Shown here: piece by piece, positions 6,071-57,402 of the stretch
Numbering within the stretch: position 1 is the stretch's first letter
Layout: each line of letters opens with the position of its first letter
From: Anaerolineae bacterium
GTDB taxonomy: Bacteria > Chloroflexota > Anaerolineae > B4-G1 > DUEL01
Assembly: GCA_034435875.1 (NCBI GenBank)
Contig: DAOTWL010000023.1
Span: forward strand, 1-57,402
Length of the DNA stretch: 57,402 bases
Direction: 5' to 3'
The notes under the pieces: model-generated
Databases searched by the model: none
Seen by the model: the letters and a program-made list of their open reading frames with translations, nothing else
What the model was told of the DNA's origin: nothing
Position numbers and translations under genes: made by a program

Positions 6071-6101
6071 CGTGCCAGGCACTTCCGAGGTGCCTGGCAC
6101 G
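6071..6101. terminator. bidirectional GC-rich hairpin between convergent genes
   Basis: CGTGCCAGGCAC-ttccgag-GTGCCTGGCACG, a perfect 12-bp stem followed by tcttcattt. Lies between the leuS end (5996) and the minus-strand gene end (6109). Confidence 0.6.
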
Positions 6102-6108
6102 TCTTCAT

Positions 6109-7056: not shown

Positions 7057-7127
7057 GGGAATACCTCCGTTATTCTCCTCACCCCTCCCCCGGCGGCGAA
7101 GGCGGCGGGGGTGGGGTGAGGAAATGC

Positions 7128-8006: not shown

Positions 8007-8020
8007 CCCTCCTTCTCACT

Positions 8021-8069
8021 CACGTTTCACGTTTCACGTTTCACGTTTCACGTTTCTCTCTTCACGTTT
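8021..8069. repeat. heptanucleotide tandem repeat (CACGTTT)x5 plus 2 degenerate units
   Basis: cacgttt at 8021, 8028, 8035, 8042, 8049 and 8063. Fills the gap between the anti-sigma stop and the toastrack start. Confidence 0.9.
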
Positions 8070-9191: not shown

Positions 9192-9318
9192 CGGCTTCTG
9201 CTAATTATACGTCAGATGGTGCGAAAAGTTGCGGGCAACATGGCCCTTGATTTTACTCACATCTCTTTGGGTAGGACTGCGGAAAACCATGGTCGGCGTT
9301 GGGGGTGGCTCTGAGGAG

Positions 9319-9629
9319 GCCCGGACGTATTGCAGTTTAACAAATTATTTGGGCAATCGCCTGAGGTGGACTTTGCTCCCTCATCCCCCCCTTGCCCCCC
9401 CTCCCCCAGAAGCGGGGGAGAAGGGGGGTTTGAGGGCGGCGGCTTCGCCACCCTCACCCCACCCCTATACCCCTCCCCTCTCCCGCAAGTAGGAGAGGGA
9501 AGGGGCCGGGGGAGGGGTGAGGTCCCCGCCGCCGAAGGCGAGCGGGAGAGGGGCCGGGGGTGAGGCGGGATGAGGGCGAGTCGCAGTTGATTGCCCAAAT
9601 AATTTTTCCAGTTGCAAAACGTCCGGGCT
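9319..9629. mobile_element. MITE-like element: ~45-bp terminal inverted repeats around G-rich palindromes
   Basis: Left arm GCCCGGACGTATTGCAG..AAATTATTTGGGCAATC (9319-9358). Right arm GATTGCCCAAATAATTT..GCAAAACGTCCGGGC (9589-9629). No ORF. Interior consists of GGGGAGGGGTGAGG-type hairpins. Confidence 0.6.
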
Positions 9630-9735
9630 CAGAAAACGAAGCCCTTTCAGGCTATGGAGACCCCCAACAAGCCGGATTTCAGCCCCCGAAGGGGGCTTCG
9701 CCACTGAGCCCGACGGTTTACCGTCGGGCCATCAA

Positions 9736-9795
9736 TTGACAAGACTTGACTTGACAAGACCCGGTTCTTGAGTACACTTTGAACACGTCAAGAAC
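9736..9795 (+). promoter_or_regulatory. direct repeats TTGACAAGAC x2 plus an 8-bp inverted repeat upstream of the Amt-like gene; candidate promoter/operator
   Basis: TTGACAAGAC at 9736 and 9751, with TTGAC at 9746. Possible -35 TTGACA (9751) and -10 TACACT (9773). GTTCTTGA(9764)-N16-TCAAGAAC(9795). Confidence 0.4.
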
Positions 9796-11080: not shown

Positions 11081-11175
11081 CGGTTCCCGCCGGAAGTCGC
11101 GGTGGTGCGGCGGCGGCCCGAAGGGCCGCCGCCGCACCGTTTCTCATCGCACCCAATCTCTGCAGGCCCCCACCG

Positions 11176-13089
11176 CTACGGCGTCGGCGTCGGGGTCGGG
11201 GTGTCGGTCGGCGTCGGAGAAGGGGTCGGCGTGGGCGTCGGCGTGGCGGTGGGAGTGGGCGTCGGCGTGGCGGTAGGAGTGGGCGTCGGTGTCGGCGAGG
11301 GTGTCGGCGTGGGCGTCGGGGTCGGCGTACGGGTAGCGGTGGGAGTGCTGGTTGGTGTTGGTGTGGGCCAATCCCCAATCCGCTGCCACCAGACCTTCAG
11401 CAGGGCCCTTCCGGTCGCCTCGTAATACTCCACCATCAGCCGACGGGCCCCGTTCAACAGCAGGTCCACCGTGTAGACCCTGCTGGCATCGCTGGGGTGC
11501 CATTCATCCAGTACCGGCGTATTGTCCACGAATATCCGCACTCCATCGTCGGCCTGGGCGAAGAGGCGATAGCGGGCCGGTTCAAAGGTCACCTGACGGG
11601 TCCAGCGGGCGGAGAAGTTATCCGCCGGAAGGCCCCAGGCCGGCGAGCCCGTGCCCCAATCAAAATCCAGGGCCCGGTCGTTGCGCACCAGGACGGGATT
11701 CCCGCTCAGGTTGGGGTTGGACCAGTACTCCCCTTTCCAGTCGGGGTAGGACGGGGAGGCGATTTTCTCCCACCATACCTGAATGCGCGCCTCGCCGGTG
11801 TTCTCATAGTACTCCACCCGCAGACTGTGGGTCCCCTGCACCAGGGCGTAGTCCACCGTGATTTCGCGAGCACTCCCATCGTGCCAGGAGTCCAGGATCA
11901 ACCGGTCGTCCACCCATAGGCGCGCGCCGTCGTCCACAATCACGTGGAAGCGGTAGGTGGCTCCTTCAAAGAGGTACGTACGCGTCCAGCGGGCAGAGAA
12001 GCCGTTGGCCGGGACGGCGGGCGCGGGGGAGCCGGCCCCCCAGTTAAAGGAGATATTCTCGTCGTTCCGCACCAGCACCGGGTTGCCGCTCAGGGTCCGG
12101 TTGGGCCAGTACTCCCCTTTCCAGTCCGGGTATGCCGTCAGTTTCTCCCACCAGACCTGGATGATGGCGCCGCCCACGTGTTCGTAGTATTCTACGCGCA
12201 GGGTATGGGAGCCCGCCGCGATTTTGTAATCGGCCGTCACCTCTCGCTGAGCCCCGTCCTGCCAGGCATCCAGAACCAGGGTGGTGTCCACGTAGATGCG
12301 CACCCCGTCGTCTACAATGGCGTGGAAGCGATACAGGCCGGCCTCAAACGCCAGTGTGCGGGTCCAGCGGACGGAGAAGTTATCGGCGGGGAGGCCGGAA
12401 GCCGGCGCGCCGGCGCCCCAGTTGAACCGGATTTCGGCGTCGTTCCGGACCAGCGCCGGAGGGCCGGCCAGTGAGATGTTGGCGAAGTACTCCCCGCGCC
12501 AGGCGGCGGGCGGGGTGGTGGGCCGGGGAGTCGGCCTTGGGGTAGGGGTCGGGGTTGGAGGGGGCGGGGTGGCCGTTGCCGTCGCGGTGGGCGCAGGGGG
12601 AGGCGACGGAGTGGCGGTGTCGGTGGGAACGGGGGTGGGGGTTTCCGTCACGACGATGTGGAGAGAGGCCCTCACTGCCGTTCCGGTCGTGGCGGACCAC
12701 ACGGCAAGAGGGAAGGCTCCTGGCTCCACTCCGGCATCCAGAGGTACTACGAAGGCCGCCGTGAACCGACCGTCCACCCCCACTGCGGCGGAGGCCAGGG
12801 CGGTGCGCCGACCGTCCGGCCCCTCCCGGCCGACGAAGACGGTGTCCCCCGGCTTCCAGCCCTCGCCGTTTACGGTGACCGGGGAGCCAGGGGCGGCGGT
12901 ATCTACGGCCAGCCGGATAGATGGGGTGGCCTGGGGCGGTGGGGGGGTGGGGAAGAGTCCCTGGCGGCTGGTCAGAATGGCTGCGCCGAGGATGCACAGC
13001 GCCAGGAGAATGAGAGAGATGCCCAAAAGTGCGACGATCACCGAGCGGGATTGTGGACTGTTGCCCAACATTTTGTTCACGTCTTTCAT
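11176..13089 (-). CDS. membrane-anchored protein with three tandem PA14 domains and Pro/Thr-rich linkers
   Basis: [33 protein letters not shown]...L..W..EYYE..G...Q.WW occurs three times. N-terminal TM segment and C-terminal (PT)n tail. Confidence 0.8.
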
Positions 13090-13117
13090 CGCGTTTACCC
13101 CCTGACAAAACCCTGAT

Positions 13118-13240
13118 AATTTCAGGACTTACGCAGTTCACCCGTAGGACCGGCTTTTCAGCCCGTCCGGACCACTTCTCAGCCCGTCTGGACGGCCTGG
13201 AAAGGCCATCCTACAGGGCAAGTGCGTAACTCCTGAATTT
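13118..13240. repeat. ~31-bp imperfect inverted repeats enclosing GC hairpins (MITE-like or structured leader)
   Basis: AATTTCAGGACTTACGCAGTTCACCCGTAGG ... CCTACAGGGCAAGTGCGTAACTCCTGAATTT. Interior contains GGCTTTTCAGCC and CCTGGAAAGG hairpins. Confidence 0.6.
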
Positions 13241-13345
13241 GTTGGCTTAACCGCATGACGTCCAGAAAGGGCAAAGGGTTCCCTGTCGGATCGTTACGGG
13301 TCCTGACTGGATAAAGGTGATGAAGGGATACTCAATGGCATCTCC

Positions 13346-13392
13346 AGTGTACCCCACCCTGTGCCCGCCGTCTACTGTAAATTCTTACAGGT
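13346..13392 (-). promoter_or_regulatory. copy 3 of the lux-box-like dyad plus promoter cassette
   Basis: Minus strand reads ACCTGTAAGAATTTACAGTA (13392-13373), overlapping TAGACG (13374-13369), 17 nt, then TACACT (13351-13346). About 90% identical to 52648-52710. Confidence 0.5.
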
Positions 13393-45481: not shown

Positions 45482-45616
45482 AAATAATACCGCGTTGAGA
45501 GGCAAAAGGTTCAAATTAGCGGAGTCGTAGCAGTCCAAGTATACCACACCTTAATGAACGGCGCAAACGGCGAGCAGATGGCGAATCGTTACCATGTCTA
45601 AACCTCAATGCGAAAC

Positions 45617-45645
45617 TTGACAACCCGCCCCGGTAGGGGTATACT
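45617..45645 (+). promoter_or_regulatory. consensus-like sigma70 promoter of the sugar ABC operon
   Basis: TTGACA, 17 nt, TATACT. A ~150-nt leader with hairpins CCCTGG..CCAGGG and GGAGG..CCTCC follows. Confidence 0.6.
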
Positions 45646-45800
45646 ATTTCTGCCCCTGGATGTCCCAGCCCCAGGGTGTTCTCAGAGGCCTGGGTTCCCG
45701 AAAGGAGGTGGTGTCCATACACGGAGAAAGCCTCCCTGACTTCTACATTACTCCTATATTATCCTCAACGTCCCCAGTTGTTACTCAAAGAGGAGTAACC

Positions 45801-47069
45801 ATGTCCCGCAGAACTGTCTGGTCTATGCTGAGCATTGTTGTGGTGCTGGCGTTGCTCATGGTCGCCTGCAGGCCCACGCCCACCGCCACCCCCACGAAGA
45901 AACAACTGGAAATCTTCTCCTGGTGGACGACGGGCGGCGAGGCGGCCGGTCTCCTGAAACTCTTTGAACTCTACAACCAGAAGTTCCCGGATGTGGAGAT
46001 CATCAACGCCACTGTCGCCGGTGGGGCTGGCTTTGAGGCCAAGCCCGCGCTGAAGGCCCGCATGCTGGGCGGCGACCCGCCGGACTCCTTCCAGGTGCAT
46101 ATGGGCCACGAACTCATTGACACCTGGGTCACCACCGGCTATATGGAGCCGCTGGATGACCTCTACAAGCAAGAGGGCTGGGAGTCCGTCTTCCCCAAGG
46201 GCGTGCTGGAGATTGTCTCCTATGATGGCCACTACTGGTCGGTCCCCGTCAACATCCACCGCTCCAACGTCCTCTGGTACAACAAGAAGGTCTTTGAGGC
46301 CAACGGCTGGAAGCCCCCGGCGACCTTTGAAGAGTTCTTCGCCCTGGCGGAGCAGATGAAGGCCAAAGGCATCACCCCGCTGGCCCTGGGCGACGTGGGC
46401 ATCTGGGCCTCCACCCACCTCTTTGAGGTCATCCTGGCCGGCACCATGGGCCCGGAGAAGTACAAGGGACTCTGGACCGGCCAGACCGACTGGAACGGCC
46501 CGGAGGTCAAGCAGGCCCTGGAGACAATGGCGAAGATGCTGGAGTACGCCAACCCCGACCACTCCGCCCTCTCCTGGGATCAGGCCAACGACCTGGTGAT
46601 CCAGGGCAAAGCCGGAATGACCATTATGGGCGACTGGGTGGATGCTGACAACCTGGCGAAGGGCTTTGCCGATTCCGGCTGGGCCTCCCCGCCGGGGACA
46701 AAGGGCATTTTCATCGCCCTTTCCGACACCTTTGGTCTGCCCAAGGGCGCTCCGCACCGGGAGCAGGCGATTGAGTGGCTGCGGATTTGCGGCTCCAAGG
46801 CCGGTCAGGAGGCCTTCAACCCGCTCAAGGGCTCCATCTGCGCCCGCAACGACTGCGACCCGAACCTCTTCGGTCCCTACCTGAAGACGGCCATGCAGGA
46901 CTGGGCGAAGGATGCCATCGTGCCCAGCCTGGCCCATGGCGCAGCGGCCTCCGAGGCCTGGGTGACGAAGATCAACGACGTGATGACGGCCTTCGTCACC
47001 GACAAGGATGTGGCCAAGGCGCAGGCCGGTCTGGCTCAGGCCTGCAAGGATGCCGGGGTCTGCAAATAG
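45801..47069 (+). CDS. sugar ABC transporter substrate-binding lipoprotein (family 1)
   Basis: ATG 45801 follows AGGAG. Lipobox LMVAC. LEIFSWWTTGGEAAGL and WYNKKVFEANGW. Confidence 0.85.
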   Translation: MSRRTVWSMLSIVVVLALLMVACRPTPTATPTKKQLEIFSWWTTGGEAAGLLKLFELYNQKFPDVEIINATVAGGAGFEAKPALKARMLGGDPPDSFQVHMGHELIDTWVTTGYMEPLDDLYKQEGWESVFPKGVLEIVSYDGHYWSVPVNIHRSNVLWYNKKVFEANGWKPPATFEEFFALAEQMKAKGITPLALGDVGIWASTHLFEVILAGTMGPEKYKGLWTGQTDWNGPEVKQALETMAKMLEYANPDHSALSWDQANDLVIQGKAGMTIMGDWVDADNLAKGFADSGWASPPGTKGIFIALSDTFGLPKGAPHREQAIEWLRICGSKAGQEAFNPLKGSICARNDCDPNLFGPYLKTAMQDWAKDAIVPSLAHGAAASEAWVTKINDVMTAFVTDKDVAKAQAGLAQACKDAGVCK

Positions 47070-47086
47070 GCGCCCCGGGCCCCGAT

Positions 47087-47119
47087 GCGGCGGGGCGGCC
47101 CTCCGGGCCGCCCCGCCGC
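47087..47119 (+). terminator. GC-rich hairpin after the binding-protein gene (likely attenuator within the operon)
   Basis: GCGGCGGGGCGGCC-ctcc-GGGCCGCCCCGCCGC, followed by agactatttt. Confidence 0.55.
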
Positions 47120-47379
47120 AGACTATTTTGGCTACCCAGAAACTCGTTCGTCGGGCCTCACCCCTCCCTCGCCGCCTTCGCCGCTGGGGATGGGGTGAGG
47201 TTGACGCTCGGCGCAAAGCGCCCAGGCAGGCCGATTTCCAATCGGCGCGACTGAAAGTCAGCCTCTTTGGGCCTTCGGCCAGGTCCCTTCACTCCGTTCG
47301 CAACCAGGGCGGCCTGCGTTAGACGCCCATTTCTGCCCGCCGTGAACCCTTCTTCGCCGCAGGAGGTACATAAACAGGT

Positions 47380-48366
47380 ATGCGCCGCATATCGTGGGAC
47401 CGGATCATCTCCGTTCTGCTCATCCTCCCTTCCATCCTGGCGGTCGCCGTCTTCGTCTACGGCTTCATCGCCTGGAGCGGATGGGTCTCCCTCTCCAACT
47501 GGGACGGCCTGCGCCCCGACCTCTCCTGGGCCGGCTTCGTCAACTACGCCAAACTCTTCGCCACCCCTCGCTTCCAGATTGACCTGCGCAACACCATCGT
47601 GTTCACCGTCCTTTTCCTGGGCACCTGTATCGTCCTGGGACTGGGGGTGGCCATTCTGCTGGACCAGGGCATTCGCGGAGAGAACTTTTTCCGCAGTCTG
47701 TTTTTGTTCCCGATGGCCATCTCGTTCGTCGTCACCGGGGTCACCTGGCGCTGGCTCCTGGCCCCCGGCGACCCGGCGACGGGCCGTCTGACCGGCATCA
47801 ACGTCCTCTTGAACGCCGTCGGCCTCCCCCTCTCCCAGTGGTACACCGACCCCACCGTCATCCACATCCAGCCCACCAGCGCGGTCGGGCAGTTTCTGCA
47901 TCAGGTCGGGTTGGGCGTCCTGACGACTCCCAACTTCGGCCTGCCGGTGGCGATGATCTCCATTGTGATCGCCGCCACCTGGCAGATGTCCGGCTACGTG
48001 ATGGCGATGTATCTGGCCGGACTGCGGGGGATTCCGGAGGAACTGCGGGAAGCGGCCCGGGTGGACGGCGCCAGCGAGTGGGAGGTCTACCGGCACATCG
48101 TCTTCCCCCTCCTGCGTCCGGTCACGCTGAGCGTCGTCATCGTCCTGGGCCACATCTCGCTGAAGATTTTTGACCTGGTGGCCGCGATGAGCAAGAAGGG
48201 GCCCGGCTTCGCCACCGACGTGCCAGCCTACTTTATGTTTGAAACCACTTTCCAGGGTGACCACTATTCTCAGGGGGCCTCTATTGCCATATTCCTGCTG
48301 GTCACCGTCAGCCTCCTGGTGGTCCCCTACCTGGTTTACAGCATCCGTCGGGAGGCCGAACTATGA
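47380..48366 (+). CDS. sugar ABC transporter permease (MalF/UgpA-like)
   Basis: Six TM segments. EAA loop EELREAARVDGASEWEVYRHIVFPLLRP. Confidence 0.88.
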   Translation: MRRISWDRIISVLLILPSILAVAVFVYGFIAWSGWVSLSNWDGLRPDLSWAGFVNYAKLFATPRFQIDLRNTIVFTVLFLGTCIVLGLGVAILLDQGIRGENFFRSLFLFPMAISFVVTGVTWRWLLAPGDPATGRLTGINVLLNAVGLPLSQWYTDPTVIHIQPTSAVGQFLHQVGLGVLTTPNFGLPVAMISIVIAATWQMSGYVMAMYLAGLRGIPEELREAARVDGASEWEVYRHIVFPLLRPVTLSVVIVLGHISLKIFDLVAAMSKKGPGFATDVPAYFMFETTFQGDHYSQGASIAIFLLVTVSLLVVPYLVYSIRREAEL

Positions 48367-49259
48367 AGGCGGCGTGGCGGAACTGGCTCATCCGACACGG
48401 CGGCCGGGCGGGTATCTACCTGGCCCTGCTGGCCGTCAGCGCGTTCTACCTCCTCCCCGTCTACGTGCTGGTAGTGACCAGCCTGAAGCCCTATGCCGAG
48501 GCCAATCTGGCCGGGATGTGGCATCTCCCCTCCGCCCCCAGCCTGGAGAGTTTCCTGCGCGCTTTTGAGCAATTACGGCCCCACTTTCGCAACAGTTTTT
48601 ACCTGACTATCCCGGCGACGCTGCTCTCGTCGCTCCTGGGTTCGGTCAACGGGTACGTTCTCTCCAAGTGGCGCTTCCGGGGGTCGGAAGTCCTCTTCCC
48701 CATCATGCTGTTCGGGATGTTCATCCCGTACCAGAGCATCCTCATCCCTCTGGTACAGGTCCTGCAGAGGGTCAACGCGGCCGCGGACGCGCTGCACATC
48801 CCGACCGCGCTGCGGTGGCTGGTGCCGGGGTACGGTTCCATCACCGGCCTGGCCTTCGTCCACATCGTCTACGGTATCCCCATCACCACGCTGATTTTCC
48901 GCAACTATTACGCGACGGTCCCCAACGAACTGGTGGAAGCCGCCAAAATTGACGGCGCCAACATCTTCAAAGTCTATCGCTGGGTCCTCTTCCCTCTCTC
49001 CATGCCGGCCTTCGCGGTGGTGATGATCTGGCAGTTCACCTCCATCTGGAACGAGTTTCTCTTCGCCGTCATCCTCACCCAGAACCCGGCCATCCGCCCG
49101 GTGACGGTGGCCCTCTACAACCTGGCGGGAAGTTACATCGTGGAGTGGAACGTCCAGATGGCCGGGGCACTCCTGGCCGCGCTGCCGACCCTGCTGGTCT
49201 ACATTTTCCTGGGGCGCTTCTTTATGCGGGGGCTCCTGGCCGGGGCGCTGAAGGGGTGA
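48363..49259 (+). CDS. sugar ABC transporter permease (MalG/UgpE-like)
   Basis: ATGA overlap with the preceding gene. ELVEAAKIDGANIFKVYRWVLFPLSMP. Confidence 0.88.
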   Translation: MKAAWRNWLIRHGGRAGIYLALLAVSAFYLLPVYVLVVTSLKPYAEANLAGMWHLPSAPSLESFLRAFEQLRPHFRNSFYLTIPATLLSSLLGSVNGYVLSKWRFRGSEVLFPIMLFGMFIPYQSILIPLVQVLQRVNAAADALHIPTALRWLVPGYGSITGLAFVHIVYGIPITTLIFRNYYATVPNELVEAAKIDGANIFKVYRWVLFPLSMPAFAVVMIWQFTSIWNEFLFAVILTQNPAIRPVTVALYNLAGSYIVEWNVQMAGALLAALPTLLVYIFLGRFFMRGLLAGALKG

Positions 49260-49266
49260 TCTCTGC

Positions 49267-50391
49267 ATGCTGGTCCTTCCACTCCGCTGGCTCCTCTTCG
49301 GTCTGTTTCTGACCGTTGCCGCAGCCATCCTCCTGGCCCTCTGGCTGGACCGCCGCCGCGCCGGGCGGCGCGCGGCGGAGACCTTCGCCGACGCCACCCT
49401 CCACGCCGTCCTGGAGCACGCCCCCTTCGGCTGGGTCGTCCTGGAGAGCGCAGAACGGTACGTCTACGCCAACGAGTACGCCCGCCATCTGCTGGACCTG
49501 AAGGCCCCCGCCGGCCCCGTCCCGGCCGTGGAATGGGGATTCCACCTGGACGACGACCGCGCCGACGTCCGGCGGGGCCGGGCTCCTGAGGGCCGCTACC
49601 GCGTCCTCCGCCTCCCCTCCGGCCGGGCCGTCCGCTGGTGGCTGATGTCCGGCCGACGGTGGGACTATCTCTTCCTGCTGGACGTCACTTCCCAGTACGA
49701 GGCCGAAGAGGCCCGTACCCAACTCTTCGCCGGCCTCTCCCACGAACTGCGCACCCCGGTGGGCGCCATCCTCACCCATCTGGAAGTCCTCCGCCTGCCC
49801 GACATCCCCGAAGCGACCAAAGCCCAATCCCTGCAACTGCTGCGGGCGGAGACCCGGCGGCTGGCCCGCATGGTCCATCTGATGCTGGAACTGGGCCGCC
49901 TGGAGACCTCCCCGGAGATAGACCGACGCCCGATAGACCTGGTGGACCTGGTGGAGCGGGCCATATCCACCCTGGCCTCCCCGTCAGAAGAACGGGGCAT
50001 CCGCTTCTCCCTGGAAGCCGATTCTCCTCTCCCCACCGTCTGGGGGGACCCAGACCGGCTGATGCAGGTCTTCCTGAACCTGCTGGATAACGTCCTCAAA
50101 CACTGCCGTCCGGGCGACCGCGCCACCGTCCTCCTCCGGCGGACGGGGGACGGCGTCCTCTGTGTGATTCGGGACACCGGACCGGGCATTCCGGCGGAAC
50201 ATTTGCCGCACCTCACCCGTCGTTTCTATCGGGCGGCGAAGCAGGAGGTAGAAGGGAGCGGGCTGGGCCTGGCGCTGGTGGAGGAGATTCTCCGCCGCCA
50301 CGGGAGCCGCCTGGAGATTTCCAGCCAAACCGAGGGAGAGACCGGGACATGCGTACAATTCGTCCTGCCGACCATGCCTTCCAGATTGTGA
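49267..50391 (+). CDS. sensor histidine kinase (HisKA plus HATPase_c)
   Basis: N-terminal TM segment. H-box FAGLSHELRTPVGAI. NLLDNVLKH, DTGPGIP, GSGLGLALV. Confidence 0.88.
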   Translation: MLVLPLRWLLFGLFLTVAAAILLALWLDRRRAGRRAAETFADATLHAVLEHAPFGWVVLESAERYVYANEYARHLLDLKAPAGPVPAVEWGFHLDDDRADVRRGRAPEGRYRVLRLPSGRAVRWWLMSGRRWDYLFLLDVTSQYEAEEARTQLFAGLSHELRTPVGAILTHLEVLRLPDIPEATKAQSLQLLRAETRRLARMVHLMLELGRLETSPEIDRRPIDLVDLVERAISTLASPSEERGIRFSLEADSPLPTVWGDPDRLMQVFLNLLDNVLKHCRPGDRATVLLRRTGDGVLCVIRDTGPGIPAEHLPHLTRRFYRAAKQEVEGSGLGLALVEEILRRHGSRLEISSQTEGETGTCVQFVLPTMPSRL

Positions 50392-51848
50392 CCCCCTTCC
50401 TTCGTCGCTGGGGGTGGCTTCTGGGGTTGCTGTTGGCGCTTCTGGCCTGCGCGCTGATTCCCGTCCCCGGCTACGTCATCATTGCGCCGGGAGGGAACAC
50501 CCCCCTCATCCCTGTCGCGCTGGGCCCGCAGATGCGGCTGGACCCGCCCTTCGCCCGCCCCGGCGACGAAGTCCGCCTCCACGTCACCGACCGTACCCCC
50601 TGGACCCACGTCCTTCTGGCCGTGAACGGCGTCGCCCTCCACCCGGAGTCCTGGGAATCCGGCCCGGGCGGACAGTGGACCTGGACGTTCCACCTGGCCC
50701 TCCCCACCGGCCCGTCGGAAATCGTCTTCTACCACAGTTGCGACACCGGCTGTCGGGAGCGGGGACGGATGATGCTGGGCGAGCCGCCGTCTCCCTCCTC
50801 CGCCCCGCTGCCCACCAAACTGGGGCTGGTCTTCCCCCACCCGGACCGGGACTGGCACGGGCGCAGCGGCTGGGCGGTGGAGGTCACCTACGTCCGGCGG
50901 GCCCAGGAGCCCGGCTGGGGGGTAGACGACCTGGCCGCGAAGGTGTACCGGCATCGGGCGAAGGGGTTGCGGGTGCTGGTGCGGGTGGACTACGACTACA
51001 ACCAGTCCATCCCGCCGACCGGCGACTATCTGGCCCTGGCGGAGTATCTGGACTACCTGGCGCGCCTGGCCCGGGACGACCGTCTCCGGGAAGTCTACGG
51101 CTACGTCCTGGGGAGCAGTTACAACGGCCTGGACCAGAACGCGCTGGCCCCCGACCGTCCGGTGACCCCGGAGTGGTATGCCCGGGTCTTCAACGGCTAC
51201 GGCGAACCCGTCCACCACACCGACAACGCCGTCCAGGTGATGCGGGCCGAAAATCCCCACGTCCGGGTGCTGGTGGGACCGGTCCGGCCCTGGAACACCG
51301 ACCAGGACGGCCTCCACAAGTACCGCGTGGATGCGCCCTGGCTCAACTACATGAACACCCTGGTGCGCGAGGTGGACGAATCGGCCCGGGCGAAGGCCGC
51401 CGCTGGGATCCCCCTGGCCGCCCCGGACGGCTTTGCCGTCCAGGCTCCAGGCCGCCCGGATGCCCCTGAACTGGGCGGGTCCGGCTCCGCAGAGCCTCAG
51501 ACCGACCTCCGGCGGCCGGAATGGAAGGGCGCCCAGGCCGGCTTCCGCGTCTATCGGGAGTGGCTGGACATCATCAACGCCTACCCGTCCACGCGGGGGC
51601 TCCCCGTCTACATCACCTCGGCCAACACCTTCATTCCGGCGGTGGGCGTCCCTCCGGCCCAGAATTATCCCCGGGGCTGGCTCCGTTCGGCCTTGGCGGT
51701 GGTGAACGGCGAGCCTCAGATTCAGGCCCTCTGCTGGTTTCTGGACGACCTGCCCGGGGACACCCAGTGGGAGAACTTCAGCCTGACCCGCCGTCGGGGC
51801 CGCCTGGTGGACGCGGCGGAGGAGTTTGAGGAACTGCTGAAAAGATAG
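50349..51848 (+). CDS. membrane-anchored hypothetical protein, possibly with a glycoside-hydrolase-like TIM-barrel domain
   Basis: TM segment WGWLLGLLLALLACALI, an Ig-like segment, then alternating beta/alpha pattern (GLRVLVRVDYDYNQ, YVLGSSYNG, RVLVGPVRPWN, PVYITSANTF). An in-frame GTG at 50388 gives a GTGA overlap with the kinase stop. Confidence 0.5.
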   Translation: MRTIRPADHAFQIVTPFLRRWGWLLGLLLALLACALIPVPGYVIIAPGGNTPLIPVALGPQMRLDPPFARPGDEVRLHVTDRTPWTHVLLAVNGVALHPESWESGPGGQWTWTFHLALPTGPSEIVFYHSCDTGCRERGRMMLGEPPSPSSAPLPTKLGLVFPHPDRDWHGRSGWAVEVTYVRRAQEPGWGVDDLAAKVYRHRAKGLRVLVRVDYDYNQSIPPTGDYLALAEYLDYLARLARDDRLREVYGYVLGSSYNGLDQNALAPDRPVTPEWYARVFNGYGEPVHHTDNAVQVMRAENPHVRVLVGPVRPWNTDQDGLHKYRVDAPWLNYMNTLVREVDESARAKAAAGIPLAAPDGFAVQAPGRPDAPELGGSGSAEPQTDLRRPEWKGAQAGFRVYREWLDIINAYPSTRGLPVYITSANTFIPAVGVPPAQNYPRGWLRSALAVVNGEPQIQALCWFLDDLPGDTQWENFSLTRRRGRLVDAAEEFEELLKR

Positions 51849-51988
51849 CAGGAAGCAGGAAGTAGGGAGCAGGAAGTAGGAAGTAGGAAGGAAAGATGCA
51901 AGACCTTTTTCCCATCCTGCGTCCTGCATCCTCCGTCCTGCATCCTGCGTCCTGCATCCTGCGTCCTGCATCCATCCCGCATCTTGCG
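51848..51988. repeat. two opposed heptamer-repeat blocks forming a long imperfect hairpin
   Basis: (GCAGGAA/GTAGGAA)x6 at 51848-51889 and (CATCCTG/CGTCCTG)x8-10 at 51912-51988. Each arm unit pairs with its opposite unit at 6 of 7 positions. Confidence 0.9.
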
Positions 51989-51990
51989 CC

Positions 51991-52614
51991 ATGAAGATCC
52001 GGGTTCTGCTGGCCGATGACCATCCCACCCTGCGGCTGGGGCTGCGGGTCCTGCTGGACCGGGAGCCGGATATAGAAGTGGTGGCCGAGGCCGAAAGTGG
52101 GGAGGAGGCCCTGGCGAAGATTCTGGCCCTTCAGCCCGAGGTGGCGGTGCTGGATTGCCAGTTGCCGGGCCTTTCGGGGCCGGCGGTGGCCCGGGAGCTC
52201 CAACGGCGGGGCCTGCCGGTACGGATACTGGCCCTCAGCGCGTACCGGTATGAACACTACATCTGGGGGATGCTGGAGGCCGGGGCGGTGGGCTACCTCC
52301 TAAAGGAGGAGGCACCGGAGGCCATAGTGGCCACCATCCGGTCGGCCGTGCAGGGCGGGATGTACTTCAGCCCCGGTGTAGCGGACCTGGTAAAGGCCCT
52401 GCTGGAAGGCAGAGGCCCGGTGCAGCTGACGAAGCGGGAGCGGGAGGTGTTACGGCTGATGGCGGAGGGGCTGAGCAACAAAGAGATTGCCGTCCGGCTG
52501 GGGGTTTCCGAGCGCACGGCGGCCTTCCACGTGAGCAACGTCCTCCAGAAACTGGGTGCGGCCTCCCGGACCGAGGCGGTGGTGAGGGCGAAGGAGCGGG
52601 GGATGATCGGGTGA
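51991..52614 (+). CDS. NarL/FixJ-family response regulator (REC plus LuxR-type HTH)
   Basis: [20 protein letters not shown] receiver domain. [44 protein letters not shown]. Confidence 0.92.
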
Positions 52615-52623
52615 GGGGGCCAT

Positions 52624-52694
52624 ACCTGTCAATTCTTACAGGTCGCGACCTGTAAGAATTTACAGTAGACAGCGGGCACAGGATGGGTTATACT
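52624..52694 (+). promoter_or_regulatory. copy 1 of the lux-box-like dyads plus conserved promoter cassette
   Basis: ACCTGTCAATTCTTACAGGT (52624-43) and ACCTGTAAGAATTTACAGTA (52648-67). TAGACA (52666-71), 17 nt, TATACT (52689-94). AGGAGG at 52729 and ATG at 52741. Confidence 0.6.
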
Positions 52695-52740
52695 GGAGAT
52701 GCCACCGGTGGAAGGCTGGTGAATAAGCAGGAGGTGCACA

Positions 52741-54303
52741 ATGCACAGGATCAGGCTTCCCTTGGCATTCACTTTGGCCATCACGGCCATGTGGCTCATG
52801 GCTATGATTGCCTACGCAGTGGATCACGGCAGCTGGCCGCAGCGATCGGTGTCTATGCTGACGGCCCAAAGCCCGAAAACGCCGCGTCCCCTCACGTTGA
52901 AGGAAGCCTATCAGTTGCTGCAGGCTCATGTTAGAAAGCTTCCCGAGGAGGCCGTCATCACCGCGCTTCAGAGCGTTGATGTGCCCGGAGACACGGCCGA
53001 TGCCGGCCAGGACGGCCGCCGTAGGGGATGGTTGGGAACGCTTCGGATCCCTGAAGCACAGATCATTGTCCGGGTGGTCGACGGAAGCCTGGTAGACTCG
53101 GTGACGCAACTCCTATCTATAGCATCCCCCGCCCTCCCCGCACCCCTCGTGGATTCACCCGAGGCGCTGCATCGGGTTCGATCTACCGATCCAAACTTCG
53201 GCCCTGCGGAGGACGCGAAAGGCCGGGGCTTCCACTTTCTCCTGAGCGCAGATGAGTCAGGATCGGCTCGCATAGAAGTTGTAGGAGCGATCGGAACACG
53301 GCGAAGCAAAGTCCTGGTGGATGCTCAATCCGGCCGCATCCTCGCCACTCAATCTTACACATGGGGCAAGGAGGGAGGCATCCTGTACTCTGCGGATGGG
53401 GGACGAACCTGGCATACCAGCACCCTGCGTGGGCGGATGGTCAAGGCCATCGCCACGGACCCCCTGGATGACCACGTGGGTTACGCCGTCGCTCCGGATA
53501 CAGCGGGTATCCTTCTTTTCCGTACCCAAGACAGCGGCAGGAGTTGGGAGGAATGGGGCCATTTGCCCTTGGATGCCGGGGATTGGCCTTTTGACATCGT
53601 GGTGATCCGAAACGGCGAAGGACACCGAACCTGGTTTCTTGGAACCTGGACCGGCGTTTGGCAATCCCCGGATGGGCGATCCTGGACCCATATGGCCAGT
53701 GGGCCGACCGGACCAATCCAGTGGCTCGCCCGGCTGAAATCGGGAAGCGGGGATCGGGTGCTGGCCAGCATGACGGCCGGTCCGAATCGCGGGCTCTATA
53801 TCTGGGACGGCCGGCAGTGGAGATGGGCCGCCCGTGGTCGTTATCGGCTCTCCCCTTCATCCGACGAAAGCAGCGTGCTGGCCCTCAATGAGGAGTCCCC
53901 CCGCCAGGCACTGCTTATATCTATAGGAGCAGAACTGCCGATGCACGTACCTGCTCCCATCCTGGATGCCGCCGGAAACTTCCAGCAGGAGAATCGGTGG
54001 CTCGTTCGCTCTCCGATGGGCGGCGTCGGGCTATATCAGAAGGACAAAGGGACTATCAAATGGACATTACCCGGGCCCATCGCCAGCCTTTCCCTCTCCC
54101 CTGCCTTCCCAACCGATGGAGTAGTGCTGGCCGGCGGGTTTCGCAGCGGGATCTTCCGCAGCACGGATGGTGGTCAGCATTGGGAACAGGTGTTGGCGCA
54201 GCCCTCCACCGTGATCCCTGGAAGCGACGAAATCTACGAGATTGTCTTCCTTTCCCCAACTAATGTGCTGGCTATTCAAGGAGGGAGGACAACATGGCAA
54301 TGA
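52741..54303 (+). CDS. secreted or membrane-anchored BNR/sialidase-like beta-propeller protein
   Basis: N-terminal hydrophobic segment. BNR-type repeats SADGGRTW, TQDSGRSW, SPDGRSW and STDGGQHW. Confidence 0.7.
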   Translation: MHRIRLPLAFTLAITAMWLMAMIAYAVDHGSWPQRSVSMLTAQSPKTPRPLTLKEAYQLLQAHVRKLPEEAVITALQSVDVPGDTADAGQDGRRRGWLGTLRIPEAQIIVRVVDGSLVDSVTQLLSIASPALPAPLVDSPEALHRVRSTDPNFGPAEDAKGRGFHFLLSADESGSARIEVVGAIGTRRSKVLVDAQSGRILATQSYTWGKEGGILYSADGGRTWHTSTLRGRMVKAIATDPLDDHVGYAVAPDTAGILLFRTQDSGRSWEEWGHLPLDAGDWPFDIVVIRNGEGHRTWFLGTWTGVWQSPDGRSWTHMASGPTGPIQWLARLKSGSGDRVLASMTAGPNRGLYIWDGRQWRWAARGRYRLSPSSDESSVLALNEESPRQALLISIGAELPMHVPAPILDAAGNFQQENRWLVRSPMGGVGLYQKDKGTIKWTLPGPIASLSLSPAFPTDGVVLAGGFRSGIFRSTDGGQHWEQVLAQPSTVIPGSDEIYEIVFLSPTNVLAIQGGRTTWQ

Positions 54304-54821
54304 TCTGGAAGAACCCAGTGAGGCGCATCCTTCTGATCCTCGGCACGGCAGCGGCTTTCGGAGTGCTGAGCTCCATCGCCATCCCGGTCTGGGCTGGACA
54401 TTATGCGGGATGGTTTACCGGCTACGCCATGGGCAATCGCTATGGAGGAGCCGGGGTGGAGCTCCGACAAGGCCATTTCGCCAATCACTATTATCGCTGG
54501 TGTCCGAACGATCCGGCAGCCTGGTGGACCTGGGGGACTCGCATTGACACGGATAGCCCCATTCGTCAGAGCACTCAATCCGGGGGGAGCATTTACTATA
54601 GCACCTTCTACCTGGAGGACGTGGGGGATCCCAGCTGTTCCATGGGAAATTACTGGGTGGACATCTACTTTGGACGCTGGGAGAACAGACCGCCTTCGGA
54701 TCCGAATTACTGCTACTGCTCCGGAGTGCCCAGCCCCGGATTCTGCTATGCTGCAAGCGCAAATTCCTGTTCTGACGCCATAAACTTTGGCCGGCAGTAC
54801 CGGGGATATACAGGGCCGTAG
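54294..54821 (+). CDS. secreted Cys-rich protein, 3D/DPBB-like domain
   Basis: Signal peptide ILLILGTAAAFGVLSSIAIPVWA. YLEDVGDPSCSMGNYWVDIYFG resembles the 3D-domain Asp motif. The alternative ATG 54300 gives an ATGA overlap. Confidence 0.5.
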   Translation: MAMIWKNPVRRILLILGTAAAFGVLSSIAIPVWAGHYAGWFTGYAMGNRYGGAGVELRQGHFANHYYRWCPNDPAAWWTWGTRIDTDSPIRQSTQSGGSIYYSTFYLEDVGDPSCSMGNYWVDIYFGRWENRPPSDPNYCYCSGVPSPGFCYAASANSCSDAINFGRQYRGYTGP

Positions 54822-54897
54822 GGGCTAGAGGTAGCGGCCGGACGCTGCAGAAGCGTCTGGCCGCTACGTCCCAGGCTCGTTAAACCGATCGTCTGTT

Positions 54898-55689
54898 ATG
54901 AGGGAAAGCACGATGTACCGCTCACTGCGGATATTCGTCAACGTCCTGCTTAGTTTATGGCTTTTTGCCTGTACGTTGCAGGCTACTCAGGTGCCCTCTC
55001 CGACCCAGACGTCCTTACCCCCTTCACCGACGGTAGGACTTCCCCAACCTTCTCCTACTTTGGCCAAGACATCCTTAACTCCCTCTCCCGCTGTGGGAAC
55101 ACCCGATTGGTATTCGCTGTTGCCGCCCATCCCGGAACCTGCTCCAACCCCTGAGCAACTTTGGCCCTCCATTCCCCCACCCACCCCGGAGCCTCGGCAA
55201 ATCCTGGGCGGTGGAACCATCGACGATGGGCCCTTCACCTTCACCCTTTGGGTAATCCGAGACCCAGCCTTCAGCCACAACCCTGCGACCCCCTCGTTAT
55301 ACAGCGACATCGAGGGCATGGGAATCCACGGGATGTGGGTGTACAACGCAAAAGAGACCCTCATTGGGCCTGTTGATGAATACTGGGGGCTTCCCTTTCC
55401 CAAAGACCTGTCCTTGGTCCTCCCTGGCGGATATGCTCGCCCGCTCCCCACGATGGAACACCCACTGCTGGAGCCGGGTTGGGGCGGCGGGGGAGAGCGC
55501 GGAATTTTTATATCCCCTCGGAGTCGTTCCACGGGTTTAGTGAAAGTGGGCTTTTTCCTGATCACCCCGAAAGGCCCCTATGGGGCCTGTATTCAATTCA
55601 AGCTCACGCCGGACCTCAAAAGTATCGATCCTGCGACCATCACTCTGGATCATCTGCCGTGCGGCGAATTCGCTGCTTCAGCCCCTTAA
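54898..55689 (+). CDS. hypothetical lipoprotein with a Pro/Ser/Thr-rich linker
   Basis: Lipobox LWLFAC and low-complexity PSPT linker. No recognisable domain. Confidence 0.55.
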   Translation: MRESTMYRSLRIFVNVLLSLWLFACTLQATQVPSPTQTSLPPSPTVGLPQPSPTLAKTSLTPSPAVGTPDWYSLLPPIPEPAPTPEQLWPSIPPPTPEPRQILGGGTIDDGPFTFTLWVIRDPAFSHNPATPSLYSDIEGMGIHGMWVYNAKETLIGPVDEYWGLPFPKDLSLVLPGGYARPLPTMEHPLLEPGWGGGGERGIFISPRSRSTGLVKVGFFLITPKGPYGACIQFKLTPDLKSIDPATITLDHLPCGEFAASAP

Positions 55690-55700
55690 TACCGCGCCGG

Positions 55701-55910
55701 GAGCTCACAGCCCGCTGGAGCCAGTGGACGGAGCGGGAACGGGAGATGTTGCGGTGGATGGCCCAGGGGTTGAGCAACCAGGAGACCGCCCGGGAGCTCG
55801 GCCTGGCCGTCCGGACGGTGGATTTTCACGTGGGGAACGTCCTGCAGAAGTGGGGAGTGATCTCGCGGCTGGAAGCGGTGCTCTGGGCAAAGGCGCACGG
55901 GTTCCTGTGA
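55701..55910 (+). pseudogene. LuxR-type HTH remnant (no receiver or ligand domain)
   Basis: ELTARWSQWTEREREMLRWMAQGLSNQETARELGLAVRTVDFHVGNVLQKWGVISRLEAVLWAKAHGFL aligns with the C-terminus of the 51991-52614 protein. Its upstream part overlaps the lipoprotein gene in another frame. Confidence 0.55.
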
Positions 55911-55980
55911 CCTGTAGGTTCCTACAGGTCCGAACCCGGTAATTTTCACAGTAGACAGCGGCCACAGGATGGGTTATACT
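55910..55980 (+). promoter_or_regulatory. copy 2 of the lux-box-like dyad plus conserved promoter cassette
   Basis: ACCTGTAGGTTCCTACAGGT (55910-29, 9-bp perfect arms). TAGACA (55952-57), 17 nt, TATACT (55975-80). 55948-56006 differs from 52662-52720 at only 2 positions. Confidence 0.6.
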
Positions 55981-56029
55981 GGAGATGCCACCGGCGGAAG
56001 GCTGGGGGGAGTATCACAAGCCATAGGAG

Positions 56030-56420
56030 GTAAGGAACTGTCTTCCACCAGCGGGCAAGCCAAATAGAAATCCAGCAGGCCACCGCCACCAGGGGCGTCC
56101 AGGTATCCCCGGCCTCTGCCCGCTGGAAACGAGGCCAGCCTAATTCCTCCTTGCGGAAACGGAGGGGTGGCTCTACCGGCCCGCGGTGGACGTAAGCCTC
56201 CCAGATGGTTTGGGCTGTTACCGTGATCCCAGAGGGCCCGATGGCCGGGGGCAACCAGGCCAGCCAGAGTGGCTCAGGAGGCTGGGAACGCTCCTGATGA
56301 ATGCCGGCGCGAACCACGTCGTGGGCCAGATCACCGGCTCGGCGCTCAAGCAGGCCCTTCTAGCGTTCCAGGCGCACCCGACCATAGGCTTCGTCTTCTT
56401 TCCGGAACAATGACGAAGGG
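56030..56420 (-). pseudogene. DDE transposase C-terminal remnant (IS701/IS4-like)
   Basis: ..VRLER*KGLLERRAGDLAHDVVRAGIHQ..TIWEAYVHRGPVEPPLRFRKEELGWPRFQRAEAGDTWTPLVAVACWISIWLARW. In-frame TAG at 56360-56362. The N-terminal two-thirds is missing. Confidence 0.45.
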
Positions 56421-56459
56421 GCGTTAACGCTGACGACCACGGTGACCCCAGAGTGTACC

Positions 56460-56491
56460 GGCCCGGAGACAAAATCTCCGGGCCGTTTTTT
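56460..56491 (+). terminator. intrinsic-terminator-like hairpin with T-run
   Basis: GGCCCGGAGA-caaaa-TCTCCGGGCC-g-TTTTTT, adjacent to the 3' end of the DedA gene. Confidence 0.55.
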
Positions 56492-57143
56492 ACCGCCCCA
56501 GCAGGCGCAGGATAGCCTCTATGCTGTAGTACCCGGCCAGGGCAAAGGCGATGTTTTTGATGATTTTCCCGGCCGCACAACTGGTCAGAAACTTCCACAC
56601 CGGGAAGCGAAGCGCGCCCGCAATCATCCCGCCCACGTCAAAGACGGGATTGGGGATGACCGCCAGGACGAAGATAACCCAGACCCCCCAGCGGCGCATC
56701 CAGCCCTGGATGCGGCCATAGATGGGGCGGTCGGAGACCAGGGTCTGGCCGCTGTAGCCCAGCAGGTAGCCCGAAAGTTCCCCCAGCGCCTGCCCGATGC
56801 CGGCCACAATCCCCACCAGCCAGGGGTTGAAGACGCCCCCCAGCACCGAACTGACCGCCAGGCCGGGGATAGGCAGGATGATGGTGGCGTTGCTGAGCAG
56901 CCCGACCAGAAAGACCGCCGCGTAGCCGTAGGCCGCCAGTTCCTGGAGCCGGTCCCGGAAGTAGACCGCCGCCGCCAGCGCGCCAACGATGATGACACCG
57001 GTCAGCACCTGCACCGCGCGCAGGTGAGCCGGAGAGGGAGTTTTGGTTTCTAACCGCAAAGGACGCAACGGGCGCGAAAAGTTTTCCCCCTTTGCGTCCT
57101 CTACGTCCTCTGCGGTGAAAAATACAGCCTTCATCGGATTCAC
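56490..57143 (-). CDS. DedA/VTT-family membrane protein
   Basis: LLSNATIILPIPGLAVSSVLGG and GELSGYLLGY. GTG start at 57143 overlaps the upstream stop (GTGA); the alternative is ATG 57134. Confidence 0.75.
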   Translation of the reverse strand: MNPMKAVFFTAEDVEDAKGENFSRPLRPLRLETKTPSPAHLRAVQVLTGVIIVGALAAAVYFRDRLQELAAYGYAAVFLVGLLSNATIILPIPGLAVSSVLGGVFNPWLVGIVAGIGQALGELSGYLLGYSGQTLVSDRPIYGRIQGWMRRWGVWVIFVLAVIPNPVFDVGGMIAGALRFPVWKFLTSCAAGKIIKNIAFALAGYYSIEAILRLLGR

Positions 57144-57402
57144 CGGGGGATGGGGGCGCCGAGACGAACGACGCGTCGCTCCGGCGGCGCGCCCCGGGTA
57201 GCGTTGCAGCAGTCCACCACCCGCCGCGCCGTCCGGACCACCCGCGCGTAATCCACCGACCGGTGCCCGGTCACGATGACGACACAGTCGGCGGATGCCA
57301 GTGCCTCATCGGTCAGGGGCACCGATTCCAGCGTACAGTTGAGCCGGTAGAAGACGTCCCCGCCGACGGTGAAGCGGGGGATGTAGGGGTCGTGATAGCG
57401 GA
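57140..57402 (-). CDS. nucleotide-sugar (UDP-glucose/GDP-mannose family) dehydrogenase, C-terminal part; 5' end lies outside the window
   Basis: ..RYHDPYIPRFTVGGDVFYRLNCTLESVPLTDEALASADCVVIVTGHRSVDY.., the typical C-terminal domain. The ORF is open to the window edge. Confidence 0.7.
   Translation of the reverse strand, partial: RYHDPYIPRFTVGGDVFYRLNCTLESVPLTDEALASADCVVIVTGHRSVDYARVVRTARRVVDCCNATRGAPPERRVVRLGAPIPR

Follow-up and report, generated by a model that had tools for sequence, protein, structure and literature searches.

In a 57,402-nt contig of an Anaerolineae bacterium (GenBank assembly GCA_034435875.1, contig DAOTWL010000023.1, positions 1 to 57,402 of the forward strand; "the window" below means this whole stretch), we analysed an intergenic element at 52624-52740 that joins two inverted repeats (dyads) to a promoter-like sequence, and which we call cassette 1. 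It stands directly behind a gene for a NarL/FixJ-family response regulator (RR; 51991..52614, +). An initial interpretation made from the letters alone, without database searches (the sequence-only reading), had taken this gene for a receiver domain (REC) joined to a LuxR-type helix-turn-helix (HTH), and Pfam agrees, giving Response_reg at 1.1e-22 and GerE/LuxR_C at 2.5e-23. The stop codon TGA of the RR open reading frame (ORF) occupies 52612-52614 (+), and 9 nt then separate it from the distal dyad, ACCTGTCAATTCTTACAGGT (52624-52643, strandless), which has a CTG-N10-CAG core. A CGCG linker leads to the proximal dyad, ACCTGTAAGAATTTACAGTA (52648-52667, strandless), whose last 2 nt lie inside the -35 hexamer of a sigma-70-type promoter, TAGACA-17 nt-TATACT (52666-52694, +; -35 at 52666-52671, -10 at 52689-52694). 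A Shine-Dalgarno sequence, AGGAGG (52729-52734, +), and an ATG at 52741 follow, the latter opening a gene for a 520-amino-acid (aa) secreted BNR/Asp-box (sortilin-like) propeller protein (52741..54303, +), the first gene behind cassette 1. The positions first proposed for the RR ORF, both dyads and the promoter all match the sequence.

The CTG-N10-CAG core of the proximal dyad ends 1 base before the -35, and the full 20-bp dyad overlaps the -35 by 2 nt. We placed the transcription start site (TSS) by assumption at G52701, 7 nt after the -10; on this numbering the proximal and distal dyads are centred at -43.5 and -67.5. The predicted 5' leader then runs from 52701 to 52740 (+) and holds a stem-loop at 52703-52721 (CACCGGT/GCTGGTG). 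The -35 is off consensus at position 2 (T2 to A), a deviation that is kept across copies of the cassette.

These signals occur in the window more often than chance predicts. ACCTGT-N8-ACAGKT, with at most 1 mismatch, gave 6 strand-matches at 4 sites against 0.18 expected, and 0 of 100 shuffled sequences equalled that number. A 43-nt promoter core occurs three times (52662-52704, +; 55948-55990, +; 13336-13378, -) where 0 occurrences are expected. The two further copies that the sequence-only reading had placed at 55910-56006 and, on the minus strand, at 13331-13392 are both located there, far above chance. In a consensus scan of 49000-57402, the promoters of cassettes 1 and 2 were the only plus-strand sigma-70-like sites to reach 10/12 positions. 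The ~40-bp near-perfect palindrome that had been noted around the linker is present (52626-52645 against 52646-52665, 95% complementary and gapless), but it has no separate meaning: it arises because two similar palindromes stand side by side, and two such neighbours necessarily make one longer palindrome. We therefore rejected it as a feature of its own and treat it as a by-product of the adjacent dyads.

Cassette 2 (55910..56006, +) has a perfect distal dyad, ACCTGTAGGTTCCTACAGGT (55910-55929), with an inner sequence unlike that of copy 1, and a degenerate proximal dyad (55934-55953) in which CCG replaces CTG. Its promoter (55952-55980, +) comprises TAGACA (55952-55957), 17 nt and TATACT (55975-55980), with the leader behind it. 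It is preceded by the remnant of a second response-regulator gene (55722..55910, +), reduced to the GerE HTH with helix AVRTVDFHVGNVLQKW, whose stop TGA overlaps the dyad that follows. The translation of this remnant shows no credible start codon. It is 60% identical to the RR C-terminus (tblastn), and together with cassette 2 it is 83% identical (blastn) to the 3' end plus cassette of a full-length RR in a related locus, L018. A GGAGG lies behind cassette 2 at 56026-56030, with no ORF after it; because this ribosome-binding site heads no ORF, the stretch 55722-56495 looks like a decayed module, and the cassette 2 promoter may drive a non-coding or vestigial transcript. A strong plus-strand terminator stands at 56459-56495, ~450 nt beyond cassette 2.

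Cassette 3 (13392..13331, -) retains the proximal dyad only (13392-13373), followed by TAGACG (13374-13369), 17 nt, TACACT (13351-13346) and a shortened leader, GGAGATGCCATTGAGTATC. It matches cassette 1 over 57 nt at 93% identity, with sharp edges. The copy sits ~250 nt upstream of a gene for a 637-aa protein, secreted or anchored, that carries three PA14 domains (11176..13089, -; Pfam PA14 3.6e-60), corresponding to a 5' untranslated region of ~250 nt, and is divergent from a Mur-ligase gene.

Recurrence and conservation in relatives

Relatives were collected as loci around RR orthologues and paralogues (numbered L001 and so on), and by DNA-pattern scans of species-representative genomes and of JGI metagenomes. 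A profile built from the copies gave 20 strong matches over the window and 11 other non-redundant loci. Among 185,579 species-representative genomes, the pattern was found in only two metagenome-assembled genomes (MAGs), with 1-2 matches in each. Five metagenome loci were retrieved by the -10/leader string TAYACTGGAGATGCCACCGG alone, a search blind to the dyads and the -35, and 6 of the 6 copies in them carry CTG-N10-CAG ending 1 base before TAGACA. This motif abuts the -35 in nearly all copies; window copy 2 has CCG.

A 15-copy alignment (A2) shows little or no variation in the proximal dyad arms, the -35, the -10 and the ~14 nt past the -10. The 17 nt between -35 and -10 vary by clade, being GCGGGCACAGGATGGGT-like in the window clade and GTCGCTCCATTTCTGG-like in the CSMAG_2462 clade. 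Dyads and promoter had been proposed to form one conserved unit, and conserved arms, hexamers and initial transcribed region around a variable spacer bear this out. Most related copies also have a distal dyad, its centre 23-24 bp from that of the proximal dyad. All but two of the listed copies keep one register between the dyad and the TAGACA hexamer, with the -43.5/-44.5 numbering resting on the assumed TSS, and the single-dyad copies (window copy 3, L011 and L016) hold a fixed register to the -35 as well. The -35 itself reads TAGACR in nearly all listed copies, the exceptions being TAGCCA (L016) and GTGACA (one copy each in L009 and L010). Unrelated promoter-like sites of the same genomes carry TTGACA, for example at window position 45617. 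Because TAGACA is conserved while other promoter-like sites there read TTGACA, this comparison suggests that the cassette -35 is deliberately sub-optimal.

The genes behind the cassettes also agree with the sequence-only reading, which had expected them to encode secreted proteins: proteins with signal peptides stand at nearly all copies that have downstream sequence, and the product has a signal-peptide-like N-terminus wherever the ORF is callable. When ten such proteins were run against Pfam, most had no family, and the matches were limited to BNR/sortilin (weak), PA14, Amidase_6 and TPR, so that no single biochemical theme can be assigned to them.

The leader recurs together with the promoter. 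The conserved string GGAGATGCCACCGG right after the -10 pairs with CCGGTGAGTATC to give a stem-loop a few nt from the predicted 5' end, and all 16 leaders that were folded have a predicted hairpin within a few nt of that end. Its stem sequence differs in L005, L015, L016 and L018, stem length ranges from 5 to 12 bp among copies, and the CSMAG-clade hairpins have z-scores of -2.8 and -3.5. Cassette 3 has lost the inner stem, and a GAUGC/GUAUC pairing is still possible there (by eye). The whole window had no match in Rfam at gathering thresholds, which places the leader and the palindrome outside known RNA families. Stem-loops that stabilise the 5' ends of bacterial mRNAs are known, for example, from the E. 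coli ompA and B. subtilis aprE leaders. Like the cassette leader, these have a stem-loop within a few nt of the 5' end (here a predicted one), and they belong to mRNAs for abundant secreted proteins, to which the cassette mRNAs may be likened. The leader hairpin is probably a 5' mRNA stabiliser.

Dyads, adjacent regulators and known systems

The sequence-only reading had pointed to the position of cassette 1 right after a LuxR/NarL-type regulator gene, and this arrangement recurs, being found twice in the window and in eight other loci. A REC+GerE gene, whole or truncated, stands immediately ahead of the cassette at both plus-strand copies of the window, three times in L001, twice in L010, at 2/3 copies in L009, and also in L005, L012, L014, L016 and L018. 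The RR upstream of the cassette is orthologous to that of the window in L001 (82% identity), L005 (91%), L016 (65%) and L018 (63%), while other RR or GerE genes take its place in L009, L010, L012 and L014.

The dyads vary in a manner that is informative about their possible ligand. Distal dyads occur as the symmetric variants CTGT-AGG..CCT-ACAG, CTGT-GGA..TCC-ACAG, CTGT-CAA..TTG-ACAG and CTGT-AAA..TTT-ACAG, and the two arms have changed jointly, as expected of a site for a dimeric protein. The 16-bp cores consist of two heptamers 2 bp apart (7-2-7), for instance CTGTAGG-TT-CCTACAG (55912-55927), CTGTAAG-AA-TTTACAG (52650-52665) and CTGTGGA-AA-TCCACAG (L009/L010). In 11/11 inspected pairs, which form 5 groups, the inner dyad triplet goes with residue x of the recognition-helix motif RTVxFH, a residue matched by eye to NarL K188. 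Where x is A, S or G, the dyad has CAA/AAG (window RR, L005, L009 RR and L014); where it is D, the dyad has AGG (window remnant, L018 RR and L009 truncated copy); and where it is E, the dyad has GGA (L010 RR, L011, L012, L010 truncated copy and the L016 half-site). Such tracking is what a cognate regulator-operator pair predicts.

The regulator is canonical for the NarL family. Its top match in the PDB is NarL (1a04, 6.6e-37), followed by VraR, ChrA, DesR and DevR. Its translation shows the DD pair, a presumed phospho-acceptor Asp (VAVLDCQ) and the conserved Ser and Lys, and its nearest homologues come from Thermoflexales/Anaerolineae MAGs and hot-spring metagenomes. The window itself was assigned to a MAG of the Thermoflexales (Chloroflexota), from an uncultured hot-spring bacterium. 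A NarL dimer fits a 16-bp inverted repeat of two heptamers 2 bp apart (PMC7419079). At yeaR, studied by cryo-EM, a NarL dimer at -43.5 activates, and one site abutting the -35 suffices (PMC10853779). At ogt, two 7-2-7 sites stand in tandem, at -44.5 and -77.5, and activation is also seen with a site placed at -67.5 (PMC7419079). Of the experimentally characterised architectures, the E. coli NarL promoters (yeaR-yoaG and ogt) come closest: like the cassette, they combine a REC + GerE HTH regulator with a 7-2-7 operator, one site abutting the -35 and a second one upstream, and their activating positions match the centres predicted here, -43.5 and -67.5. The half-site differs, CTGT(A/C/G)(A/G)(A/G) in the cassette versus TACYYMT for E. 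coli NarL, so the cassette would be the site of a different family member, and the site spacing is 23-24 bp versus 33 bp at ogt. The cassette also differs from the E. coli NarL systems in its HisKA-type kinase, in its thermophilic Chloroflexota host and in that the promoter-leader unit has been duplicated whole.

The dyads had initially been likened to lux boxes. The V. fischeri lux box, ACCTGTAGGATCGTACAGGT (PMC4444344), and the las, rhl and tra boxes are 20-bp dyads with a CTG-N10-CAG core, as are the cassette dyads; ACCTGTAGGTTCCTACAGGT of window copy 2 is identical to the lux box at 18/20 positions, and all cassette dyads retain ACCTGT..ACAGGT or CTG-N10-CAG. The isolated HTH of the regulator scores alike against GerE, NarL, VraR, RhlR, CviR and SdiA, with LasR also matched, because all share one fold. 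Position is similar too, since the V. fischeri lux box is centred at -42.5, a class-II-like location just upstream of the -35, comparable to that of the proximal dyad. However, lux-type receptors have an autoinducer-binding domain, whereas every cassette-linked regulator inspected has Response_reg or a truncated GerE part only, and the inner dyad positions vary between cassette modules. Among the scanned window proteins and the precomputed Pfam lists of the loci, there was no Autoind_bind (PF03472), LuxI-type synthase or acyl-homoserine lactone receptor domain. The likeness thus holds for geometry and arm sequence and fails for family membership, the regulators here carrying a receiver domain. 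Judged by these domains, the cassette is similar to the lux box in its DNA geometry and is not a quorum-sensing operator.

The operator reading and its alternatives

We conclude with high confidence that the element is a transcription-factor operator fused to a promoter. We are moderately confident that the binding factor belongs to the adjacent regulator family, and less so, with moderate to low confidence, that it would activate. Taken as a whole, we consider it reasonably probable that the adjacent NarL-family regulator and truncated paralogues of it use the dyads as operators, and that these would activate secreted-protein genes in a variable island. The sequence-only reading had spoken of a dedicated operator/promoter cassette that defines a small secreted-protein regulon. 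The comparisons support the cassette, and the "regulon" is better described as tandem modules of a strain-variable island, with several specificity classes.

On this operator reading, dimers of the NarL-family regulator encoded just upstream would bind the two 20-bp sites, presumably after phosphorylation by the HisKA kinase of the same operon, and paralogous or truncated GerE-only copies would act as the binder in other modules. Placed near -43.5 and -67.5, such dimers would recruit RNA polymerase or stabilise it, in the manner of E. coli NarL at yeaR and ogt, and transcription would begin a few bases ahead of the conserved stem-loop, which probably stabilises the mRNA. This mRNA would encode secreted proteins: the BNR propeller plus two Cys/Pro-rich proteins behind cassette 1, and the PA14 protein behind copy 3; in relatives it would encode an amidase, a TPR protein and Cys-rich orphans. 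Duplication of the cassette, with 3' pieces of regulator genes carried along, would have produced the tandem modules of the strain-variable island. What the sequences show directly is the set of features itself, how it recurs and is conserved, its linkage to GerE-type genes and the symmetric changes in the dyads; regulator binding, activation over repression, the TSS and the role of the hairpin we infer.

Several observations weigh against this proposal. The promoter, at 10/12 consensus positions, might need no activator, and the sites could equally repress. A centre spacing of 23-24 bp is a non-integral number of helical turns. NarL-family regulators are usually paired with HisKA_3-type kinases, and the partner kinase here is of the HisKA (PF00512) type and not HisKA_3, a pairing rule that is general knowledge. 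In L002-L004 an ammonium-transporter gene comes immediately after the RR orthologue (86% identity) and the cassette is missing, and L007 has no cassette right after its RR; the linkage of gene to site is therefore not universal. No GerE gene lies upstream of window copy 3 or of the L009 copy at 5589. Finally, the correlation of residue x with the dyad could reflect co-duplication of the adjoining gene end and dyad.

The consensus match, along with the optimal 17-nt spacer and the 2-nt overlap of the proximal dyad with the -35, would also suit a regulator that uses the same sites to repress or to switch, occluding a strong promoter at the sigma region 4/alpha-CTD contacts until a signal arrives; LuxR-type proteins can repress when the box overlaps core promoter elements (PMC4444344). 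Designs for LuxR repression, however, put the box between the -35 and the -10 (PMC4444344), unlike the cassette, whereas the -43.5 site upstream of the -35 is a classical activator position, used by NarL at yeaR and ogt. The non-consensus A at -35 position 2, kept in nearly all listed copies, likewise fits activator dependence, and we regard repression as unlikely. The cassette-free regulators in L002-L004 and the two copies with no GerE gene upstream are what one might see if the dyads were operators of another, unlinked factor, either a different GerE/LuxR-type protein or an unrelated dimer, and if RR adjacency only reflected segmental duplication. In that case the GerE "solos", which resemble truncated duplication remnants, would be just that, and linkage alone could yield the residue-to-dyad correlation. 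Yet the association recurs over RR lineages down to 63% identity, the 7-2-7/CTG-N10-CAG geometry is that of GerE-type HTH dimers, and the residue-dyad match holds for paralogues with otherwise different helices, for example, in L010, the RR and the truncated copy. An acidic residue facing a G/C-rich inner triplet would also be chemically sensible. An unlinked factor therefore seems to us distinctly unlikely.

The palindrome could instead act as nucleic-acid structure, as a terminating or stabilising 3' stem-loop of the regulator mRNA or as a cruciform-prone hot spot for recombination. The window indeed has no canonical terminator between the RR stop and the dyads, and RNA of 52600-52690 folds with a 13-bp perfect stem within a longer hairpin (minimum free energy (MFE) -27.7 kcal/mol). 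Cassette homology ends near the dyad centre in L006 and L016, and island content differs between strains. But no U-tract follows the palindrome, and its fold is marginally better than shuffles (z = -1.96). In L009, L010, L011, L012, L013 and L014, a canonical hairpin-plus-T-run terminator stands between the GerE-type gene and the dyads, which places the dyads in an untranscribed spacer and not in the terminator of that gene. Single-dyad copies keep the -35 register, the double palindrome is only a by-product of adjacent similar palindromes, and there are just two breakpoint cases. We consider a structural role of this kind quite improbable. As an intrinsic terminator in particular, the cassette 1 palindrome was rejected: a scan of 52615-52700 finds none, the hairpin has an A+T-rich mid-part, and AGTAGACAGC follows it in place of a U-tract.

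A part of a mobile element, in the form of insertion sequence (IS) or miniature inverted-repeat (MITE) termini or an outward-facing mobile promoter, would explain the sharp repeat edges of the 57 nt shared by copies 1 and 3, and DDE transposase genes do occur in the L001 and L007 islands. Three contigs with BNR homologues (L020-L022) start 26-119 nt from the gene start, as if a repeat had broken the assembly. Copies are few, however, with three in the window and the 1-2 matches in two MAGs mentioned above, and 0 of the 20 profile matches flank a transposase as a terminal repeat. We saw no paired inverted copies around a transposase gene, and the copies share the orientation of a downstream signal-peptide ORF where sequence exists. 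The sequence-only reading had named location mainly at the ends of full-length IS elements as the finding that would speak against it; no copy lies at an IS end. We rejected terminal repeats as an explanation and hold any mobile-element origin to be very improbable.

To our knowledge, almost nothing is known of the transcription signals of uncultured thermophilic Anaerolineae, and literature searches on Chloroflexi or Thermoflexus found no earlier description of the cassette. A response regulator acting on inverted repeats beside a -35 is a textbook mechanism; it is the cassette itself that was previously undescribed. If confirmed, it would be among the first defined regulator-operator-promoter sets for Thermoflexales and uncultured thermophilic Anaerolineae, and its promoter consensus, probable activator site and leader element could be reused as genetic parts. 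Dyad variants paired with changes of single recognition-helix residues would provide a compact test bed for DNA reading by GerE/LuxR-type HTH domains. The cassette also marks a strain-variable secreted set under putative two-component control (the BNR propeller, the PA14 protein, the amidase and the Cys-rich orphans), which may play a part in surface interactions, or in those between cells, in hot-spring mats.

Gene neighbourhood and possible island rearrangements

The regulator gene is the last of a block that comprises sugar-type ABC transporter genes, a histidine kinase gene (49267..50391, +; HisKA + HATPase_c by Pfam), a gene for a conserved 499-aa protein (50349..51848, +) and the regulator itself. 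The kinase, which opens the kinase/499-aa/RR part of this block, is of HisKA (PF00512) type and has in addition a weak PAS match. This part is syntenic in L002, L006, L007, L009, L016 and L018. The 499-aa protein has an N-terminal hydrophobic segment and no Pfam match, and orthologues of 498-534 aa hold the same position between kinase and regulator in L002, L006, L007, L009 and L016. Conserved and membrane-anchored, it may be a co-sensor.

Between the 499-aa gene and the RR start, at 51847-51973, lie opposed heptamer arrays, (AGCAGGA)x6 and (CATCCTG/CGTCCTG)x8.7. Together they form one long hairpin (RNA MFE -75 kcal/mol, z = -8.4), for which the Rfam scan of the whole window gave no family at gathering thresholds. 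The orthologous spacers in L001/L006/L007, L002, L005, L009, L016 and L018 also contain self-complementary repeats, of other sequences (judged by eye, the window's being the one folded). Since the repeats differ in sequence yet stay self-complementary at one position, structure appears to be conserved and sequence not. The hairpin is probably an intercistronic attenuator or a processing/stability element that sets regulator dosage.

Downstream of cassette 1, the 520-aa protein fits the secreted BNR propeller of the sequence-only reading in its signal-peptide-like N-terminus and its four Asp-box motifs (SxDxGxxW), while its Pfam BNR/Sortilin scores lie under the curated cut-offs. The family is confined to this lineage, and its 19 homologues have identities of 37-84%. 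Second in the operon is a gene for a 175-aa Cys-rich protein with an N-terminal hydrophobic segment (54294..54821, +), whose start overlaps the BNR stop, and the third gene of the module encodes a 263-aa Pro-rich protein with an N-terminal signal/anchor (54898..55689, +); neither has a Pfam match.

Each relative has different DNA downstream of the regulator. There is no island in L002-L004. That of L001 has small ORFs, GerE fragments and a DDE transposase; that of L016 has a cytochrome and a PA14 protein; L009 holds three cassettes inside 4 kb and L010 two modules. The GerE-only ORFs look like 5'-truncated regulator copies: a 111-aa GerE protein in L010 begins with the end of a receiver domain, and those in L001 hardly differ from the RR C-terminus. 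Together, this suggests an island built by tandem duplication of units, each consisting of a 3' regulator part, operator, promoter, leader and signal peptide, with different cargo.

In L006 (10636-10650), cassette homology stops near the dyad centre, at ACCTGTCAGAATG|AACCATCC, and an unrelated TTGACA-17-TATAAT promoter follows; in L016 (~12470-12495) it stops similarly at ACCTGTAGAAAG|TGATTG. These breakpoints, two cases only, may reflect palindrome-associated breakage or recombination. In L016 and L002, a block of genes for PA14, ammonium transporter, ECF sigma factor and leucyl-tRNA synthetase (LeuRS) stands directly beside the regulator island. In the window the same block (3182-13392, versus 45612-52619 for the regulator block) is inverted and ~39 kb distant, and each junction bears a cassette copy (3 and 1). 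It is possible that rearrangement through cassette copies moved the PA14-LeuRS block. A simple inversion between copies 1 and 3 was considered and is not established; the L016 PA14 gene has no cassette ahead of it, and homology ends inside the coding sequence.

A broader version of the modular picture, conceivable though doubtful, is that a portable "expression head" (operator, promoter, stabiliser hairpin, ribosome-binding site and signal-peptide start), together with RR 3' fragments, builds the tandem modules of a hypervariable secreted-protein island. If so, regulator paralogues and GerE remnants would have co-diversified with the dyad variants (A/S/G, D and E versus CAA, AGG and GGA), giving insulated channels or a cascade. 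The long palindromes would act as breakpoints, inverted cassette copies would swap which secreted-protein genes come under two-component control, and some secreted proteins of the island would possibly be cell-wall-active. Co-diversified variants, modular duplication and palindrome-associated rearrangement are the unusual aspects of this system, and the cases for them are anecdotal.

A different repeated head is used twice in L020 (1-120 and 3541-3640), with the dyad TAGGGATTTCCCTG abutting TTGACA and one copy lying where a GerE gene ends. A lower-GC relative may have the same architecture with another operator sequence. The L020-L022 contigs begin 26-119 nt upstream of the BNR homologue and so offer little upstream context. 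L001 and L006 have, at ~9720-10000, a ~300-nt insertion between the intercistronic hairpin and the RR start, made of two copies of a unit ending ...CCCCCAAATATAAACTTGACGGGC[CT]ACT, like a small repeat element. Both loci come from assembly GCA_017880035.1, in which many genes are split and the whole locus is present again as a tandem repeat. At the other end of the regulator block, a near-consensus TTGACA-17-TATACT (window 45617-45645) lies ahead of a gene for an ABC-transporter solute-binding protein, just where the block syntenic with L002 and L016 has its left edge.

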